Shown: piece by piece, positions 26,839-43,029 of the stretch
Position numbering within the stretch: the first letter of the stretch is position 1
How the letters are laid out: each line of letters begins with the position of its first letter
Notes under the pieces: generated by a model
What the model saw: the letters and a program-made list of their open reading frames with translations, nothing else
Told to the model about the DNA's origin: nothing
Databases searched by the model: none
Program-made: the position numbers and the translations under genes
Origin: Escherichia phage vB_Eco_F27
Length of the DNA: 64,000 nucleotides
Sequence record: OP870146.1
Direction: 5' to 3' (one strand)

Positions 26839-27141
26839 TTAGATAGATGTAGGCTCTAATTTTATTTTCATGAACTCGGCAAATTGTCTGGCAGTTTTTA
26901 TGCCTTGTTCATGACATTCAAATGCATCATCACAGGGGCTATTTTTGTAATGCTTTGCCATATACTTATAGAATTTTTCAGAATTCTCGACATTTTGAAT
27001 TTCAAACAAAGTATATACGTTTTTAATCCCTGATTCCATAAAGTTATCAAAATATGGGTCGATATATGCAGTACCAACGATAGGAGTTGTTGCTGCAAAA
27101 AACCCCAGCATCGCCATGACAGCTATCGCTCTTAAGGCCAT
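26839..27141 (-). CDS. rI: lysis-inhibition regulator rI (antiholin)
   Basis: 100 aa. The signal-anchor N-terminus and DPYFDNFMESGIKNVYTLFE...PCDDAFEC...IKLE align with remembered T4 RI. Confidence 0.85.
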   Translation of the reverse strand: MALRAIAVMAMLGFFAATTPIVGTAYIDPYFDNFMESGIKNVYTLFEIQNVENSEKFYKYMAKHYKNSPCDDAFECHEQGIKTARQFAEFMKIKLEPTSI

Positions 27142-27153
27142 ATAGGCCTCCTG

Positions 27154-27366
27154 TTAATTTTGGCCAGTATTTATTTTTCGCCTTTGGACGGCCTTAACAT
27201 CTGTGAGGTATTTTTCCAGCTTGCGCTTGCGTGTATAATCAGCTTTAGAACCAGTTTGACGGATATCCTCGTTTAAATGAGAAATAGAATGTCCTAATTC
27301 TCTTCGGATTTCATCCAATTTGGTTACAGTAAGATTACGAAGTTGTCTTTCGTTTAATTGCTGCAT
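27154..27366 (-). CDS. hypothetical basic protein (rI.1 position)
   Basis: 70-aa ORF between tk and rI. Confidence 0.6.
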
Positions 27367-27393
27367 ATATACCTCTTGGTTAGATATTAGTAT

Positions 27394-27975
27394 TTATAAC
27401 AACCCTGTCAAATCGTTCCAATGCTTCCGGCATAATGACACATATCTATCGGTATCACCAATTTCAATTTGACTGCCATCTGTAATTGGAAGTCCGTCTT
27501 CCGTGACTCTAGCTACCATTGTGGCCTTTTTACCGCAATGACAGACACCTTTAAGTTCAACAAGCTTATCGGCAATAGCCATTAATGCTTGAGAACCTTC
27601 AAATAGATTACCTTTAAAATCTGTTCGTAGTCCATATGCCATTACCGGCACATTGTATACGTCAACAATACGACTAAGTTGATACACCTTTTCAGTAGTT
27701 AAGAACTGAGCTTCGTCAACAAATACGCAGTGAATATCCTTTTGTGCTGCAGCCCATTTATAGAATTCAAAGATATCCATGTCTTTTGTAATTATATTGG
27801 CGTCCTGGCGAATACCAATACGAGAGACTATTTCACCTTTTGAATCGCGAGTATCAATAGCCGGTTTAAGAACTAATACACCCATGCCACGTTCTTTATA
27901 GTTATGTGCGGCAGTAAGTAATGAAGCAGACTTACCAGCGTTCATAGCGGCATAGGTAAAAATTAAACTAGCCAT
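27394..27975 (-). CDS. tk: thymidine kinase
   Basis: 193 aa as in T4. P-loop AMNAGKS, FVDEAQF, zinc motif CHCG...CRKH. Confidence 0.93.
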   Translation of the reverse strand: MASLIFTYAAMNAGKSASLLTAAHNYKERGMGVLVLKPAIDTRDSKGEIVSRIGIRQDANIITKDMDIFEFYKWAAAQKDIHCVFVDEAQFLTTEKVYQLSRIVDVYNVPVMAYGLRTDFKGNLFEGSQALMAIADKLVELKGVCHCGKKATMVARVTEDGLPITDGSQIEIGDTDRYVSLCRKHWNDLTGLL

Positions 27976-27984
27976 AAGAGTCCC

Positions 27985-28167
27985 TTATAGTGAATTCACG
28001 TAGTCAATGAGTTCTTGTTCTTTCCTGTCAAATGATTCCAACAATGCTTGATATTCTTCGTCCGTCAAAGGAGCATATTCATCATACGCATTGGTGGCTG
28101 CTTGCTCATCCAATAGGTCATGGATAAGTTCAAACAGTTTAGTTTTCTCTTCTTTAGTCAATTTCAT
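27985..28167 (-). CDS. small acidic hypothetical protein
   Basis: 60-aa ORF (tk.1 position). Confidence 0.55.
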   Translation of the reverse strand: MKLTKEEKTKLFELIHDLLDEQAATNAYDEYAPLTDEEYQALLESFDRKEQELIDYVNSL

Positions 28168-28376
28168 TTAGGTTCACCTTCTTTAACGAAATCTGGGTAA
28201 GGGTAAAATCCTGAGTAAAACCCTTCACCTTTATGATTGCTACAACCTTTGTTCGAACAGTAACACCAATAATCAAAATCACAAGCCATTTCGTCATTGC
28301 ATAAAGCAAAAACTACAGGCCATTCGCATTTTTCGCATTTAGCACCTGTAAGAATTTTTGTTTGACTCATAGCCAT
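28164..28376 (-). CDS. Cys-rich small protein
   Basis: The ATG at 28376 (MAMSQTKIL). Contains CEKCEW...CNDEMAC...CYCSNKGCSNH. Confidence 0.55.
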   Translation of the reverse strand: MAMSQTKILTGAKCEKCEWPVVFALCNDEMACDFDYWCYCSNKGCSNHKGEGFYSGFYPYPDFVKEGEPK

Positions 28377-28579
28377 GTCACCTTTAAGCAATATTCTTCT
28401 ACATGTTGTTTACGGCCTTTCTTATCAATAAAGGTATATTCAACGAATGTTCCGATGTAGTCTTTATCTACATCATGTGGACTATTAATTGGACATTTAG
28501 TACGACAAATGCGTTCCCATTGACGAATAATTACTGCCTTATTCTTTGGATCATATGGATGTGGATAATGTATATTCAT
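28367..28579 (-). CDS. hypothetical protein
   Basis: The ATG at 28579 (MNIHYPHPYDP) overlaps the stop of the macro-domain gene (ATGA). Confidence 0.55.
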   Translation of the reverse strand: MNIHYPHPYDPKNKAVIIRQWERICRTKCPINSPHDVDKDYIGTFVEYTFIDKKGRKQHVEEYCLKVTWL

Positions 28580-29043
28580 AATAACGGTTCCCAATCAACA
28601 ATCACAATTTCTAGTTTAGTGGAATACGTATCTAAAATCTCTTCGATGACATCCCAGTTTCCACCACCAATACCTGCACCAATTCTTGGCATATAAATTA
28701 CAGGCTTTGTTATCTTATTCTTTCCGAATTCATTTAATTCTATTATACAATTCATTAAAGCAGAGTACTCAAAATTAGGTCCCGGCTCAAACTGTGTATA
28801 AAGATTAAAGCAATAAGCTTTATGGGTCTTAAAATATTTTTCATAAACCGAATAAGTCCAGAGTTTAGACTTGTCTCCGAATTCGGTTTGAAGTTTATCG
28901 GCTTCCAGAATTTTTGGATAAGCCTTTGCTAATTGCCCTGCCACACCAGCGCCCATTGTATGAAAACAATTACACCCATGAGCAATATTATTACCTTTAG
29001 AAAACAGGGCGACAATATCGCCCTTGATATAGTTTTTAATCAC
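28576..29043 (-). CDS. macro-domain protein, TARG1/OARD1-like
   Basis: IKGDIVALF...AHGCNCFHTMGAGVAGQL...MPRIGAGIGGGNWDVIEEIL parallels the human TARG1 blocks (KGDLF, [28 protein letters not shown]). Start is uncertain: GTG at 29043 with AGAGGA upstream, or TTG at 29073. Confidence 0.6.
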   Translation of the reverse strand: MIKNYIKGDIVALFSKGNNIAHGCNCFHTMGAGVAGQLAKAYPKILEADKLQTEFGDKSKLWTYSVYEKYFKTHKAYCFNLYTQFEPGPNFEYSALMNCIIELNEFGKNKITKPVIYMPRIGAGIGGGNWDVIEEILDTYSTKLEIVIVDWEPLL

Positions 29044-29383
29044 TTGCTGCAAGTCCTCTATTATAAGAGTCAACTAAACGGTCCACCATAGAATTGCATG
29101 CTGCCTTATCTTTAGGTTCCGCCACCGAGCATTCTAATATTTGCCATTTTTTATAGTATCTTTTAATTAAGGTAGACGCCTTGAACCTACTAGACGCCCC
29201 ATCTTTTTCTCCGTCTTTATAAGCGTATAACAATTTTTGTGAAAAATCTACTTTACACTCTTGACTTTTACCACAATAATCAGACGCCGTTCTGTTTGTA
29301 TACTCCGTTACATCAGTATATGTAGTATTAGCAAGAGCGTTAAATGAAACCAAGCCAACTATTAAAGCCAACATTTTGGTCAT
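29036..29383 (-). CDS. secreted protein (T4 vs position, same 115-aa length)
   Basis: Signal peptide MTKMLALIVGLVSFNALA. Four Cys residues. Assignment to vs is positional only. Confidence 0.5.
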   Translation of the reverse strand: MTKMLALIVGLVSFNALANTTYTDVTEYTNRTASDYCGKSQECKVDFSQKLLYAYKDGEKDGASSRFKASTLIKRYYKKWQILECSVAEPKDKAACNSMVDRLVDSYNRGLAASD

Positions 29384-29922
29384 TCTTTTATTTCCAGTAG
29401 TTTATTTGATTTAAGGTAATTAGCCTTTTCTAGGACTTCAGAAGCATATTTACTTCCAGCACTTGTCTTCCATCCCGCATTATATGAGGATATAGCTTTT
29501 CTTATATCCCCGTTATGTATATTTAACCAATAAGAAAATTCGATATAAGCCCATCTGGTTGAATTAGACCGCTTAGATAGCATTTTCTTAATTTGGGCAT
29601 CAGTCATATTATAACCAAGCTGGTTAATTCTTGCCCTCATTGTTGGTAGATAATTTTGGAACATTCCATACGCATGGTGACCTTTCTTATCTTTAAGATT
29701 AATACCGGCAGATGATTCCTGCCATAGTATTGCGGCCATTATGTATCCAAGTCCTTTCTTATGCATATTTTCATGCGTTTTAAATTTTCCATCCTTAGAA
29801 AACTGTTCCCCAAACTGATAAGCATAATTCAAGTTATCGAGTTGGACATTACTAAAAGTATGCTCGGAGCTATGTGCTGATAACGAAAGAGCAAATAGAC
29901 CAGCGAGTAGTGCTTTTCTCAT
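29380..29922 (-). CDS. secreted soluble lytic transglycosylase (SLT) domain protein (vs.1 position)
   Basis: Signal peptide MRKALLAGLFALSLSA. SLT motifs WQESS, GMFQ and SYNAGW. Confidence 0.75.
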   Translation of the reverse strand: MRKALLAGLFALSLSAHSSEHTFSNVQLDNLNYAYQFGEQFSKDGKFKTHENMHKKGLGYIMAAILWQESSAGINLKDKKGHHAYGMFQNYLPTMRARINQLGYNMTDAQIKKMLSKRSNSTRWAYIEFSYWLNIHNGDIRKAISSYNAGWKTSAGSKYASEVLEKANYLKSNKLLEIKE

Positions 29923-29930
29923 GTTTACCT

Positions 29931-30389
29931 CTAGATTTTAATCACTGCTTTAGAAGCTTTTCCTGGTAGTCGTTTACTGTTAATAATAGCCATTCTGCAT
30001 TGAAGAGTCTTCATTTTGAATGCTGGATTTTCGCGACAAACTGTAAGTCCTAACCAAAGATTTCCGTCAGTTATTTCTAAACGGCCTGGACGATACTCGA
30101 CACCTTCGACAAAATCTTCATCAACATCTGGACGGGCCGGCATTGATAAAAATTCTGCAACTTCTTTAACATGATTTTTTACTTTATGAAATAATTCAAA
30201 AACGTAATTCTCATCTATTTCTCTCTGGATGGCACGATCTAAGAGATGTTGAGAATACTTGATATGAAAGCCTGGTAGTCCAAGAGACTTTGCAGCATCT
30301 TTTATACTGGCATTTATTTTGCGGAACTCCGTTTCAAAGATTCGACGGAGTTTATTACGGCGGATAAAAACGTCTGAATTGATAGTCAT
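29931..30389 (-). CDS. regB: sequence-specific endoribonuclease RegB
   Basis: 152 aa. MTINSDVFIRRNKLRR...HLLDRAIQREIDE.YVFELFHK...GVEYRPGRLEITDGNLWLG...RLPGKASKAVIK matches remembered T4 RegB. Confidence 0.9.
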   Translation of the reverse strand: MTINSDVFIRRNKLRRIFETEFRKINASIKDAAKSLGLPGFHIKYSQHLLDRAIQREIDENYVFELFHKVKNHVKEVAEFLSMPARPDVDEDFVEGVEYRPGRLEITDGNLWLGLTVCRENPAFKMKTLQCRMAIINSKRLPGKASKAVIKI

Positions 30390-30417
30390 TTTGATTTCTC
30401 CTCTAGTTGACAGGTCT

Positions 30418-30446
30418 ATAGTAACACAACTAGAGGAGAAGTAAAC
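30418..30446 (-). promoter_or_regulatory. early promoter cassette of regB with SD-sequestering inverted repeat
   Basis: Minus strand: GTTTAC, 17 nt, TACTAT. The spacer TTCTCCTCTAGTTG (30427..30440) is perfectly complementary to CAACTAGAGGAGAA (30397..30410), which contains the regB SD. Confidence 0.7.
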
Positions 30447-30449
30447 TGC

Positions 30450-30659
30450 TTATTCTTGGAATGGTGTGAGTTTTCCAGCTATCGAACAAATTTCTACCAT
30501 TGCAGGATAAAACTCTTTCACTTGTTCAAGGCGCTGGACAGCGTACCGCATTTCGCCTTCTTCAAGACAAGCCACCTGGTCATCGAGCAAATATTTGTGG
30601 TAACCAGTACAGGCTTCACTAATGATACGTTGGAATTCTTGCAAACTTTCAATTTTCAC
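30450..30659 (-). CDS. hypothetical protein (vs.3 position)
   Basis: ORF 30450..30701. A GTG at 30659 (KIESLQEF...) with GAGGA 9 nt upstream avoids a 43-nt overlap. Confidence 0.5.
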   Translation of the reverse strand: MKIESLQEFQRIISEACTGYHKYLLDDQVACLEEGEMRYAVQRLEQVKEFYPAMVEICSIAGKLTPFQE

Positions 30660-30925
30660 TAGTATTTTTCCTCGGGTCGAAATACTGCACGACATGCCCA
30701 CATGCTGGCTTCTTTTAGATGTTGCTTAGCATACTTAAGAGCCTGTACTGCATCCATATCTTCTTTGGTTTGTTGCTCTGTTTCATTTTCTTTCAAGATA
30801 TATGCTTCTTCAATCAGAGCATCAAACAACAATCCAAGACGGACTTCTGCATCTTTAATAGCGTTCACTTTACCGATTTTATCGTCGGTATGTGGCTTGT
30901 AGCCTTTAATATCTTCAATCGACAT
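30659..30925 (-). CDS. vs.4: Acb2-like cyclic-oligonucleotide sponge (T4 vs.4 homolog)
   Basis: From the ATG at 30925 the product is 88 aa, MSIEDIKGYKPHTDDKIGKVNAIKDAEVRLG...LKYAKQHLKEASMWACRAVFRPEEKY. Both the vs.4 position and the ...EA.MWA.RA... C-terminal helix are typical of Acb2. Called from memory only. Confidence 0.55.
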   Translation of the reverse strand: MSIEDIKGYKPHTDDKIGKVNAIKDAEVRLGLLFDALIEEAYILKENETEQQTKEDMDAVQALKYAKQHLKEASMWACRAVFRPEEKY

Positions 30926-31139
30926 AAGGAATTTCCTCATCGGTGGCAAGGTCATATTCGACCAATTGGATAGGCTCATTAATACCATATCCACGTACAG
31001 TGATATCAGTTGCCGGATAGTTTCCAGTAATATCACCCATTCTAAATGCTTCAGTGAATGATTGCTCGCCTGAGCAACTAAACCAGGCGGCAAAACATTT
31101 TAAAACATCTTCAGACCCTTCTATAATCAATTTAGCCAT
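30915..31139 (-). CDS. hypothetical acidic protein (vs.5 position)
   Basis: 74-aa ORF. Confidence 0.6.
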   Translation of the reverse strand: MAKLIIEGSEDVLKCFAAWFSCSGEQSFTEAFRMGDITGNYPATDITVRGYGINEPIQLVEYDLATDEEIPYVD

Positions 31140-42777: not shown

Positions 42778-42854
<77 letters not shown>

Positions 42855-42954
42855 ATGATGCGGCTTTGGGTGTTTCAGTGTTACTCGTTTGTAGGTTCTA
42901 CTTTTAACCCTTATTCGAACAACTTACCTACCTAAGAGCGTACTCACCGCGAAT

Positions 42955-43029
42955 TGGTGGCCCTGGCTGGTTTCGATCCAGCTACCTATCAGTTATGAGC
43001 TGACAGCTCTCCCATTGAGCTACAGGGCC
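42955..43029 (-). tRNA. tRNA with CAU anticodon (Ile2-type AUA reader after lysidine modification, or Met)
   Basis: Cloverleaf: GGCCCUG UA GCUC AAUGGGA GAGC U GUCAG CUCAUAA CUGAU AGGUA GCUGG AUCGAAA CCAGC CAGGGCC ACCA. The C4-G69 and C5-G68 pairs and the GCUGG/CCAGC T stem resemble E. coli tRNA-Ile2. The T loop is unusual (A54). Confidence 0.8.

Follow-up and report, generated by a model that had tools for sequence, protein, structure and literature searches.

An ortholog of T4 tk.4 (adfM) in a Mosigvirus encodes a stand-alone macrodomain with glutamine at the catalytic lysine position and a probable role against DarTG2

Introduction

DarTG systems halt phages through ADP-ribosylation of phage DNA. 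T4 lacking both adfA and adfN was still resistant to DarTG2, indicating a further anti-DarTG2 factor (PMC11825919). In a preprint, transposon screening with a DarTG2-carrying host gave tk.4 as its sole significant gene, and tk.4 was named adfM (anti-DarT factor Macrodomain); its clean deletion rendered T4 sensitive to DarTG2, and enzymatic removal by T4 AdfM was graded as "seems likely" (bioRxiv 10.1101/2025.11.20.689424). The phenotype has thus been demonstrated by others, for the T4 allele only. Our literature searches found no other papers on tk.4 function, and full-text matches to "AdfM" were mostly unrelated. The same name was given independently to PhiKZ gp104, a chimallivirus DarG2-like antitoxin that is likewise a stand-alone phage macrodomain directed against DarTG2; this unrelated protein strips thymidine-linked ADP-ribose in vitro (PMC13309987).

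Among cellular macrodomains, SCO6735 of Streptomyces coelicolor (PDB 5E3B) is a proven lysine-independent hydrolase of ADP-ribose attached to thymidine in DNA; it leaves guanosine-linked ADP-ribose in place and protects E. coli against DarT, and its activity is lost with Q85A and almost lost with N27S (PMC9411070). The other described relatives considered here are BT1257 of Bacteroides (PDB 2FG1), human TARG1/OARD1 (PDB 4J5S), DarG of M. tuberculosis and T. aquaticus (PDB 5M3I, 5M31), and the yeast ADP-ribose-1''-phosphate phosphatase Poa1p (PDB 6LFQ), which acts on a small-molecule substrate. In this study, we compared with these systems a gene of Escherichia phage vB_Eco_F27 (OP870146.1), located in a 64,000-nucleotide stretch of DNA that we call the window.

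Results

Orthology and genomic context

The gene is the Mosigvirus (RB69-like T-even phage) ortholog of tk.4 of T4, itself a Tequatrovirus. The two proteins are of equal length and 84% identical over 155/155 aa (T4 Tk.4, NP_049723), differing by 25 substitutions, and the window protein matched PHROG 335 with an E-value of 3e-64. Both genes occupy the same slot between vs and tk.3, and both proteins carry the same conserved motifs; one difference lies in the phosphate loop, where K127 of T4 Tk.4 corresponds to Gly, the family consensus (108/120 homologs). The macrodomain identity and, for T4 tk.4, the anti-DarTG2 role were already known, since the former is in public annotation and both are reported for T4 tk.4. 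In GenBank, the product is labelled "macro domain protein" in some records and "phosphatase" in others.

The ortholog lies between tk (27394-27975) and regB (29931-30389), as the sequence-only reading had placed it, in the order regB-vs.1-vs-tk.4-tk.3-tk.2-tk.1-tk found in T4; the order regB-vs.1-(vs)-tk.4-...-tk was kept in 42/80 related viral loci. The start of tk.4 overlaps the end of vs (stop TAA, 29036-29038) by 8 nt, whereas T4 tk.4 begins with ATG and overlaps vs by 4 nt; this arrangement suggests translational coupling. At the other end, the TGA stop of tk.4 and the ATG of tk.3 share an ATGA overlap. An Rfam scan of 27000-31000 gave no significant match. The coordinates of all features are given in Table 1.

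No DarT toxin gene lies beside the tk.4 ortholog, its neighbours being vs and tk.3, and no DarT-family (DUF4433) Pfam annotation was present among the neighbours at the three homolog loci that we looked up. A link to antitoxins through bacterial homologs standing beside a DarT gene was accordingly rejected, as none of the neighbours on the three contigs examined bears such an annotation. These three contigs themselves look like phage DNA, carrying a vs.1-like SLT-domain gene, a T4-type RNA ligase, a Dda-like helicase and DUF4326.

Table 1. Features of the tk.4/adfM ortholog and its surroundings in the window
Feature	Position	Strand	Basis or description
tk.4/adfM ortholog CDS, stand-alone macrodomain	28576..29043	-	155 aa, 17.5 kDa, GTG start, TGA stop
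GTG start codon	29041..29043	-	aligned with the ATG start of T4 tk.4
GAGGA Shine-Dalgarno	29054..29058	-	10 nt upstream of GTG, within the end of vs; read from sequence
8-bp GC-rich RNA hairpin AGGGCGAU-AUU-GUCGCCCU, codons 7-13	29006..29024	-	followed by a U-rich stretch
HGCNC substrate-binding loop motif, codons H22-G23-C24-N25-C26	28966..28980	-	conservation and alignments
Codons N80-L81-Y82-T83-Q84	28792..28806	-	Q84 at the catalytic Lys position
Phosphate-binding loop, codons P119-W130 (PRIGAGIGGGNW)	28654..28689	-	conservation, TARG1 alignment
vs (valyl-tRNA synthetase modifier), upstream gene	29036..29383	-	position as annotated in T4 and mogra; synteny
tk.3 (DUF7202), downstream gene	28367..28579	-	Pfam DUF7202 2e-38; T4 annotation

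Start codon and translation signals

The minus-strand ORF with a non-ATG start that the sequence-only reading had proposed at 28576-29073 was confirmed; it encodes 165 aa from TTG and 155 aa from GTG. The GTG at 29043 is most likely the start, judging from the alignments. GTG is also the start codon in the closest IMG/VR relatives, and ATG in T4-type relatives. We rejected TTG 29073 because a 1-nt indel shortly upstream of where ATG and GTG align puts T4 in a different frame, so that the 10-codon extension is not conserved, and because phage mogra, at 99.6% identity the nearest public record, is annotated with the same 468-nt CDS in its 155-aa form. A Shine-Dalgarno sequence of the form (G)AGG(A/G/T) was kept in T4 and other syntenic relatives. 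The dN/dS against T4 tk.4 was 0.075 with synonymous sites near saturation, and the gene is therefore protein-coding and under strong purifying selection.

Within the first codons lies a conserved hairpin, which appeared as a terminator-like match in the terminator scan; this hairpin excepted, the counts of the promoter and terminator scans did not exceed those of shuffled sequence. Its sequence is identical in T4 despite the saturated synonymous sites. Among 10 distinct variants, rare C-ending codons were fixed, and AAG/CTN and AAA/TTR covaried. Fold predictions had the hairpin and U-tract sequestering the Shine-Dalgarno in the window and two relatives, not in T4. The hairpin may control expression.

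Macro fold and class

We then assessed the fold and class of the protein. Pfam Macro (PF01661) matched it with 24.8 bits (cut-off 22, E 2.2e-5) over profile positions 2-117 of 118, placing it in the macro superfamily, and fused relatives scored up to 41.5 bits. Single-sequence comparison with TARG1 gave E = 1e-3, and HMMER reproduced over the full length all three TARG1 blocks that had been aligned by eye. The family profile matched BT1257 (4e-17), TARG1 (1.2e-15), SCO6735 (1e-14), M. tuberculosis DarG (1.2e-13; hhalign probability 98.2%) and Poa1p (2.6e-13). The AlphaFold model reached pLDDT 95.7 and pTM 0.91. The protein has the macro fold of three alpha/beta/alpha layers, including the GxG and PxxGxG loops that bind ADP-ribose; Foldseek placed TARG1 on top (1.3e-9), and BT1257 was the best PDB match in sequence and fold. 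In both sequence and structure, the protein is nearer to ALC1/TARG1-like members than to the MacroD, PARG, macroH2A or viral X-domain classes. These results place the protein among the ALC1/TARG1-like macrodomains (TARG1, DarG, SCO6735, BT1257), and the suggestion made from the sequence of a TARG1-like macrodomain in the class of DarG holds at the sequence, profile and fold levels.

DarG was the sole NCBIfam match and the sole PADLOC match. The DarG equivalog model NF048014, whose cut-off is 250, gave a score of 26.1 bits over profile positions 4-146 of 338; the 155 aa of the window protein are the length of a macrodomain only, and the C-terminal DarT-binding domain of DarG is absent. We rejected assignment to DarG proper, as the protein has no catalytic Lys, no C-terminal domain and no partner toxin.

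The existing labels point to another activity. T4 RefSeq describes tk.4 as "phosphatase; contains A1pp phosphatase motif" (the macro idea is thus not new, the A1pp/macro annotation standing already in that record), and PHROG 335 is labelled "phosphatase". The protein could accordingly process small ADP-ribose molecules, either removing phosphate from ADP-ribose-1''-phosphate as Poa1p does or deacetylating O-acetyl-ADP-ribose, and so clear ADP-ribose derivatives that arise from infection or host immune signalling. The Poa1p alignment, which is confident by sequence in the N-terminal third only, sets H22 against His23, a mutagenesis target in PDB 6lfs, and the HxCNC motif is common to both. Our search of longer homologs for domain fusions gave one faint TRAM match and one informative fusion, to DUF4326. 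This domain, which has been suggested to work on ADP-ribose derivatives at their terminal ribose phosphates, occurs with part of the family either as a fusion or as a neighbour, and soluble ADP-ribose derivatives are the favoured targets of phage macro domains in Iyer et al. 2022 (PMC9503650). Against this, the "phosphatase" label is inherited from the old domain name A1pp, with no assay behind it, the Asn/Gln pair is that of the DNA-specific SCO6735, and the only tk.4 phenotype reported in the literature searched is sensitivity to DarTG2, which ADP-ribosylates DNA. Such an activity could also coexist with the main function without being the main function, and we consider small-molecule processing an unlikely principal role.

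Active site

To describe the active site, we used conservation counts from 260 homologs, a diverse set described as at most 50% identical. Q84 was invariant (260/260). HMM and hhalign alignments place it where TARG1 and DarG have their catalytic Lys (K84 and K80, respectively); SCO6735 has Gln85 at this position, and BT1257 has Gln as well. N25 was kept in 258/260 homologs and H22 in 254/260; N25 corresponds to N27 of SCO6735 (H24-V25-C26-N27, by sequence and the published numbering) and to N22 of DarG (hhalign). In the phosphate-binding loop, P119, I121, G122 and G124 were invariant and W130 nearly so, while G126 aligned with D125 of TARG1, a position that holds A or G across the family.

Compared with TARG1, to which it is about 23% identical, the window protein therefore has Gln for K84, Gly for D125 and Asn for the S26 equivalent, so the covalent Lys/Asp mechanism of TARG1 cannot operate in it. 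TARG1 proper was rejected, since its catalytic dyad Lys84/Asp125 is replaced by Q84/G126. The sequence-only reading had regarded missing catalytic residues as grounds for giving up the macrodomain assignment; for TARG1 they are literally missing, and the assignment nevertheless stands, because the Gln/Asn pair matches the competent SCO6735 type (PMC9411070) and the loss re-assigns the subclass instead. PhiKZ AdfM, which enters the phage nucleus by import, has a DarG-type active site (N23, K78; PMC13309987), whereas that of the T-even protein is Gln-type.

With Q84 and N25, the window protein has the Gln/Asn pair that marks the Gln-type subclass of SCO6735 and BT1257, both of which share with it the Gln, the stabilising Asn and the HxCN motif, at about 25-29% identity. 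The two differ from it in a "mobile loop", said to mark the subclass, that is 5-6 residues longer; it is described as exceeding the loop of DarG/TARG1 by five residues and as bearing Lys89 and Lys93. From Q84 to S93 this loop has 8 residues in the window protein, as in TARG1 and DarG, whose loops are also short, and 14 in BT1257; the 8-residue form occurred in 102/120 word-search homologs and in 70/140 representatives at 50% identity. The loop of the window protein contains no lysine, and K34, K89 and K93, which aid DNA binding in SCO6735, are absent from the T-even protein. The T-even protein is also less basic (pI 6.3, family median 6.1, against 8.5-9.7 for SCO6735, TaqDarG, TARG1 and BT1257), and it has invariant residues of its own, namely D49, Y82 and C26. 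Full membership of the SCO6735/BT1257 subclass was rejected, as the long mobile loop is missing.

The absence of the canonical catalytic Lys also fits a protein that does not catalyse at all and instead blocks DarT2 by stoichiometric binding of the toxin or of ADP-ribosylated DNA. Dead mutants of SCO6735 (Q85A), DarG (K80A) and TARG1 (K84A) inhibit DarT in vitro by direct interaction, SCO6735 most strongly (PMC9411070), and because catalytically dead macrodomains can do so, the knockout phenotype alone is no proof of hydrolysis. However, N25, Q84, G33 and P119-G124 are conserved across the 260 homologs, and an ADP-ribose-binding and active site so constant is more readily understood if the protein catalyses a reaction on one unchanging small ligand than if it binds fast-evolving toxins. 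Moreover, the protein has no DarG-type DarT-binding domain and scores 26 against 250 on the NCBIfam DarG model, and catalysis by SCO6735 is fast with this same Gln (PMC9411070). We regard non-catalytic inhibition as quite unlikely.

Discussion

We found that the window gene is an ortholog of T4 tk.4/adfM whose product, an ALC1/TARG1-like macrodomain, has Gln in place of the catalytic Lys. We consider it rather probable that this ortholog serves counter-defence against DarTG2 by removing ADP-ribose from DNA, probably through SCO6735-like chemistry; the removal and its mechanism are what we infer for the window protein by analogy. Of the roles proposed in the sequence-only reading, reversal of DarT-type DNA ADP-ribosylation matches the genetics of the T4 ortholog, deletion of which leaves the phage DarTG2-sensitive (bioRxiv 10.1101/2025.11.20.689424). 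For the other two, degradation of immune signals and tuning of Alt/ModA/ModB, we looked for evidence and found none.

Counter-defence would be the likeliest job of the protein, which, as a 155-aa stand-alone macrodomain, would be expressed from the regB-vs-tk operon in the early phase of infection. Host DarT2 (of DarTG2) places ADP-ribose on thymidine of single-stranded phage DNA and thereby blocks replication. The phage enzyme would take the ADP-ribose into the macrodomain cleft and hydrolyse the N-glycosidic bond between ribose and thymine, restoring normal DNA. The chemistry would probably be lysine-independent, as in SCO6735, and would differ from that of DarG and TARG1, which relies on Lys: Gln84, held by Asn25, may position the distal ribose, and a water held by the backbone may start the cleavage.

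T-even phages encode three ADP-ribosyltransferases (Alt, ModA and ModB in T4); an eraser of ADP-ribose on proteins or RNA could tune the modifications that they make or else reverse host RNA marks of the uracil-linked or CmdT type. TARG1-class enzymes including SCO6735 do hydrolyse Glu/Asp-linked ADP-ribose on proteins and uracil-linked ADP-ribose on RNA as well (PMC9411070, PMC13036486). However, the chief target of Alt, ModA and ModB is arginine (PMC9503650 and its references), whereas the activities reported for the class are on Glu/Asp-, thymidine- and uracil-linked, not arginine-linked, ADP-ribose (PMC9411070, PMC13036486). TARG1 removes ester-linked ADP-ribose from proteins by means of a Lys/Asp dyad that the window protein does not have, the adenine mark made by CmdT has been described as one that cannot be reversed (PMC13036486), and the literature searched yielded no genetic or biochemical link between tk.4 and such substrates. 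A protein or RNA eraser is in our view highly unlikely.

Several features do not sit easily with DNA de-ADP-ribosylation by SCO6735-like chemistry: the Lys with which DarG and TARG1 catalyse, Asp125 of TARG1, and the long loop and lysines of SCO6735 are all missing from the protein, and its pI is near neutral. T-even Tk.4/AdfM might represent a separate catalytic type, the third among ALC1/TARG1-like macrodomains and carried essentially by phages, lysine-less like SCO6735, with a short loop of the DarG/TARG1 type and with its own invariant H22, C26, D49 and Y82, at least one of which would possibly be catalytic or base-recognising; its substrates may be different or wider, and the hairpin may control its expression. 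We put this forward tentatively, as rather unlikely. If it were true, the substrates could include RNA-borne, uracil-linked ADP-ribose, or ADP-ribose metabolites on which it would act together with DUF4326 proteins.

As an element, the gene is of a kind already described. What is added here is the Gln for Lys at the catalytic position of the T-even proteins, from which SCO6735-like, lysine-independent chemistry would be predicted for them; that chemistry is not taken up in the preprint. Phage erasers of DNA ADP-ribose help to explain the DarTG2 resistance seen in T-even phages, and phage ADP-ribose erasers bear on the host range of phages in therapy and on the evolution of erasers.

Identity and start codon of the tk.4 gene

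The ORF studied here lies exactly at the position of T4 tk.4, because its neighbors regB, vs.1 and vs on one side, and tk.3, tk.2, tk.1 and tk on the other, match those of T4. Its 155-aa product read from GTG aligned with T4 Tk.4 at 84% identity and without gaps. The sequence-only reading had offered two start codons, and the comparisons favor GTG 29043 over TTG 29073: the T4 ATG falls on this GTG in the DNA alignment, a Shine-Dalgarno GAGGA at 29058-29054 is conserved, and the closest match among public records, Escherichia phage mogra of the genus Mosigvirus (99.6% identity), carries the same 468-nt CDS under the label 'macro domain protein'. Protein-level conservation does not extend to the 10 extra codons of the TTG form, since T4 carries a 1-nt indel just before the aligned start codon.

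Features of the tk.4 locus in transcription order
Feature	Coordinates	Strand	Place	Basis
regB		minus	first	Pfam REGB_T4, 2e-69
vs.1 counterpart (SLT-like ORF)	29380-29922	minus	second	
vs		minus	third, directly before the tk.4-type ORF	gene order as in T4
tk.4-type ORF	29073 (TTG) or 29043 (GTG) to TGA 28576-28578	minus		ORF reading of the window
RNA hairpin, 8 bp, GC-rich: AGGGCGAU-AUU-GUCGCCCU, then a U-rich tract	29024-29006	minus	codons 7-13 of tk.4	
tk.3		minus	right after the tk.4-type ORF	DUF7202
tk.2		minus	after tk.3	phage zinc-binding domain
tk.1		minus	after tk.2	DUF7438
Thymidine kinase (tk)		minus	last	gene order as in T4

The vs stop and the GTG overlap by 8 nt, and the tk.3 ATG overlaps the TGA (ATGA), the arrangement that T-even phages usually show for translational coupling. 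Comparison with T4 tk.4 gave a dN/dS of 0.075 with pS of 0.61, a sign that the protein is under strong purifying selection.

The vs.1 ortholog has a signal-peptide-like N-terminus and a weak SLT lytic-transglycosylase match under the Pfam cut-off (19.4 vs 21.3 bits); an SLT-type gene like vs.1 goes with tk.4 homologs elsewhere too, including on a distant MAG contig. In mogra, several CDSs around this locus (the equivalents of vs.1, vs.3 and vs.6-vs.8) are labeled 'endoribonuclease RegB' and tk.3 is labeled 'putative ABC transporter ATP-binding protein'; these look like errors passed between annotations. Only two tRNA genes, Arg-TCT and Met-CAT (42778-43029, minus strand), turned up in the 64-kb window, which showed no larger tRNA cluster.

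Tk.4 is a TARG1-like macrodomain

At class level, the Tk.4-type protein is a TARG1-like macrodomain. Pfam Macro matched at 24.8 bits, above the gathering cut-off of 22, which bears out the assignment made by eye, and all three blocks then aligned with TARG1 lie inside the full-length HMM alignment. As a single sequence, the protein matched the PDB entries BT1257 (5e-10), Poa1p (3e-8), SCO6735 (8e-5), TARG1 (1e-3) and DarG (1e-2). A family profile built from 62 homologs gave BT1257 at 4e-17, TARG1 at 1.2e-15, SCO6735 at 1e-14, Mtb DarG at 1.2e-13, Poa1p at 2.6e-13 and Taq DarG at 1e-11, and reached coronavirus Mac1 and other macrodomain classes only near 1e-3. The AlphaFold model was very confident (pLDDT 95.7, pTM 0.91), and its best Foldseek match was TARG1 (1.3e-9). 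DarG was the only NCBIfam match and the only PADLOC match, both far under full-length thresholds.

Many T-even records label the gene 'macro domain protein' or 'Poa1p-like', PHROG 335 covers it, and the T4 RefSeq record reads 'phosphatase; contains A1pp phosphatase motif'. It is unlikely that Tk.4 is a Poa1p-like enzyme with a small molecule, ADP-ribose-1''-phosphate or OAADPr, as its substrate, and this reading found no direct support.

The active site lacks the catalytic lysine

The PDB sequences of Mtb DarG, Taq DarG, BT1257 and SCO6735 were taken from alignments, and DarG, BT1257 and SCO6735 were aligned to the family HMM together with 260 family members, including 140 representatives sharing <=50% identity with each other. 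The results showed Gln84 at the catalytic-lysine position (TARG1 K84, DarG K80) in 260/260 homologs, and hhalign confirmed the register, with DarG N76..T79-K80 opposite N80..T83-Q84 (probability 98.2%). Opposite the second catalytic residue, TARG1 D125, stands Gly126, a position that holds Ala or Gly throughout the family. Asn25, the counterpart of DarG N22 and of the BT1257 Asn, is kept in 258 of the 260. The sequence-only reading had tied its assignment in part to the catalytic residues: the TARG1 pair is absent, while Asn25 and Gln84 are present as in SCO6735 and BT1257. It is highly improbable that Tk.4 removes ADP-ribose from protein or RNA, or in this way tunes Alt/ModA/ModB: the linkage in Alt/Mod targets is to arginine, and Tk.4 has no TARG1 dyad. 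No direct support for this reading was found either.

The Asn25/Gln84 site has the same make-up as that of SCO6735 and BT1257; in the numbering of PMC9411070, SCO6735 H24-V25-C26-N27 matches H22-G23-C24-N25 and Q85 matches Q84. SCO6735 has no catalytic Lys or Asp, with Gln85 in place of the Lys; the substitutions Q85A and Q85E abolish activity, and N27S nearly does (PMC9411070). It removes ADP-ribose linked to thymidine, though not to guanosine, more quickly than DarG or TARG1 do, and it protects E. coli against DarT; the authors proposed a water-initiated, backbone-assisted mechanism (PMC9411070).

T-even Tk.4 proteins, however, depart from SCO6735 in several ways. The lysines with which SCO6735 binds DNA (K34, K89 and K93) are absent, the 'mobile loop' after the Gln has 8 residues, as in TARG1 and DarG, rather than the 14 of BT1257, and the pI is near-neutral (6.3; family median 6.1) compared with 8.5-9.7 for SCO6735, Taq DarG, TARG1 and BT1257. 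Asp49 (codon at 28895-28897) is invariant in all 260 proteins, whereas DarG and BT1257 have Tyr there and TARG1 a gap. Y82 is likewise invariant and specific to the family; C26, nearly invariant, also occurs in Mtb DarG. The present analysis shows orthology, fold and class, and the make-up of the active site.

A conserved RNA hairpin within the coding sequence

The hairpin is identical in T4, although synonymous sites are saturated. All 10 distinct variants encoding KGD[IL][VI]AL use the rare codons GGC, GTC/ATC and GCC without exception (usage 16%, 13% and 14% in the window phage; product 0.003), while the codon in the loop and the third position of Leu are free to vary. Lys and Leu codons covary across these T-even lineages, AAG with CTN and AAA with TTR, and lineages with Lys, Glu or Gln for Ala12 have neither the stem nor this codon constraint. 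These patterns suggest a selected RNA structure, which could be an attenuator, a stabilizer or a translational control element. Fold predictions paired the Shine-Dalgarno region with the U-tract for some lineages; for T4 they did not. Where sequence matches cover the hairpin region, some GenBank records carry a 'terminator' feature.

Distribution and gene neighborhoods

By blastn, tk.4 occurs in >1000 phage records, each from a T-even-like phage that infects enterobacteria; an IMG/VR scan gave 523 relatives, and an exhaustive profile search 1241 clusters (50% identity) at E <=1e-30. Of 80 viral loci, 42 preserve the gene order regB-vs.1-(vs)-tk.4-...-tk, and more distant members occupy other phage contexts. 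Across the IMG/VR loci, tk.1, tk.2 and tk.3 (27985-28594 in the window) form a variable cassette; T-even lineages differ in the subset or in other inserts, with tk.4 and tk as constant anchors. Three 'MAG'/metagenome contigs with Tk.4 homologs appear to be phage DNA, and no DarT-family gene was found among the neighbors on them.

A few family members are fused to DUF4326 (homolog P0184) or lie a few genes from one, beside a T4-type RNA ligase 1 and a Dda-like helicase (locus L085:69-371). For DUF4326, which resembles rhodanese phosphatases, Iyer et al. (2022) proposed a role in processing the ribose phosphates of ADP-ribose derivatives.

Anti-DarTG2 function in T4 and probable role of this protein

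T4 without adfA and adfN remains DarTG2-resistant, and a further factor was predicted (PMC11825919). In the HIDEN-SEQ preprint (20 Nov 2025), tk.4 was the single significant transposon-depleted gene of T4 on a DarTG2 host, and a clean knockout was sensitized to DarTG2; Tk.4 was found structurally similar to Mtb DarG, the gene was renamed adfM, and enzymatic ADP-ribose removal from DNA was stated only as likely (bioRxiv 10.1101/2025.11.20.689424). This phenotype comes from the work of others and covers T4 only. The name AdfM was also given, independently, to another phage macrodomain, PhiKZ gp104, which removes thymidine-linked ADP-ribose in vitro and keeps the DarG-type site N23/K78 (PMC13309987), in contrast to Gln84 of T-even Tk.4.

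The first function proposed from sequence, reversal of DarT-type ADP-ribosylation, is therefore already published; the observation of a macrodomain gene was confirmed and its interpretation supported. Since gene, domain and anti-DarTG2 role are all in the public record, we judged the gene already known.

Stoichiometric inhibition of DarT2 seems quite unlikely, slightly more so than small-molecule turnover, and no direct support for it emerged. We consider it probable that Tk.4 is an eraser: made early in infection as a stand-alone enzyme, it would hydrolyze the ADP-ribose that DarT2 puts on thymidine of phage ssDNA, through a lysine-free Gln84/Asn25 chemistry that we infer.
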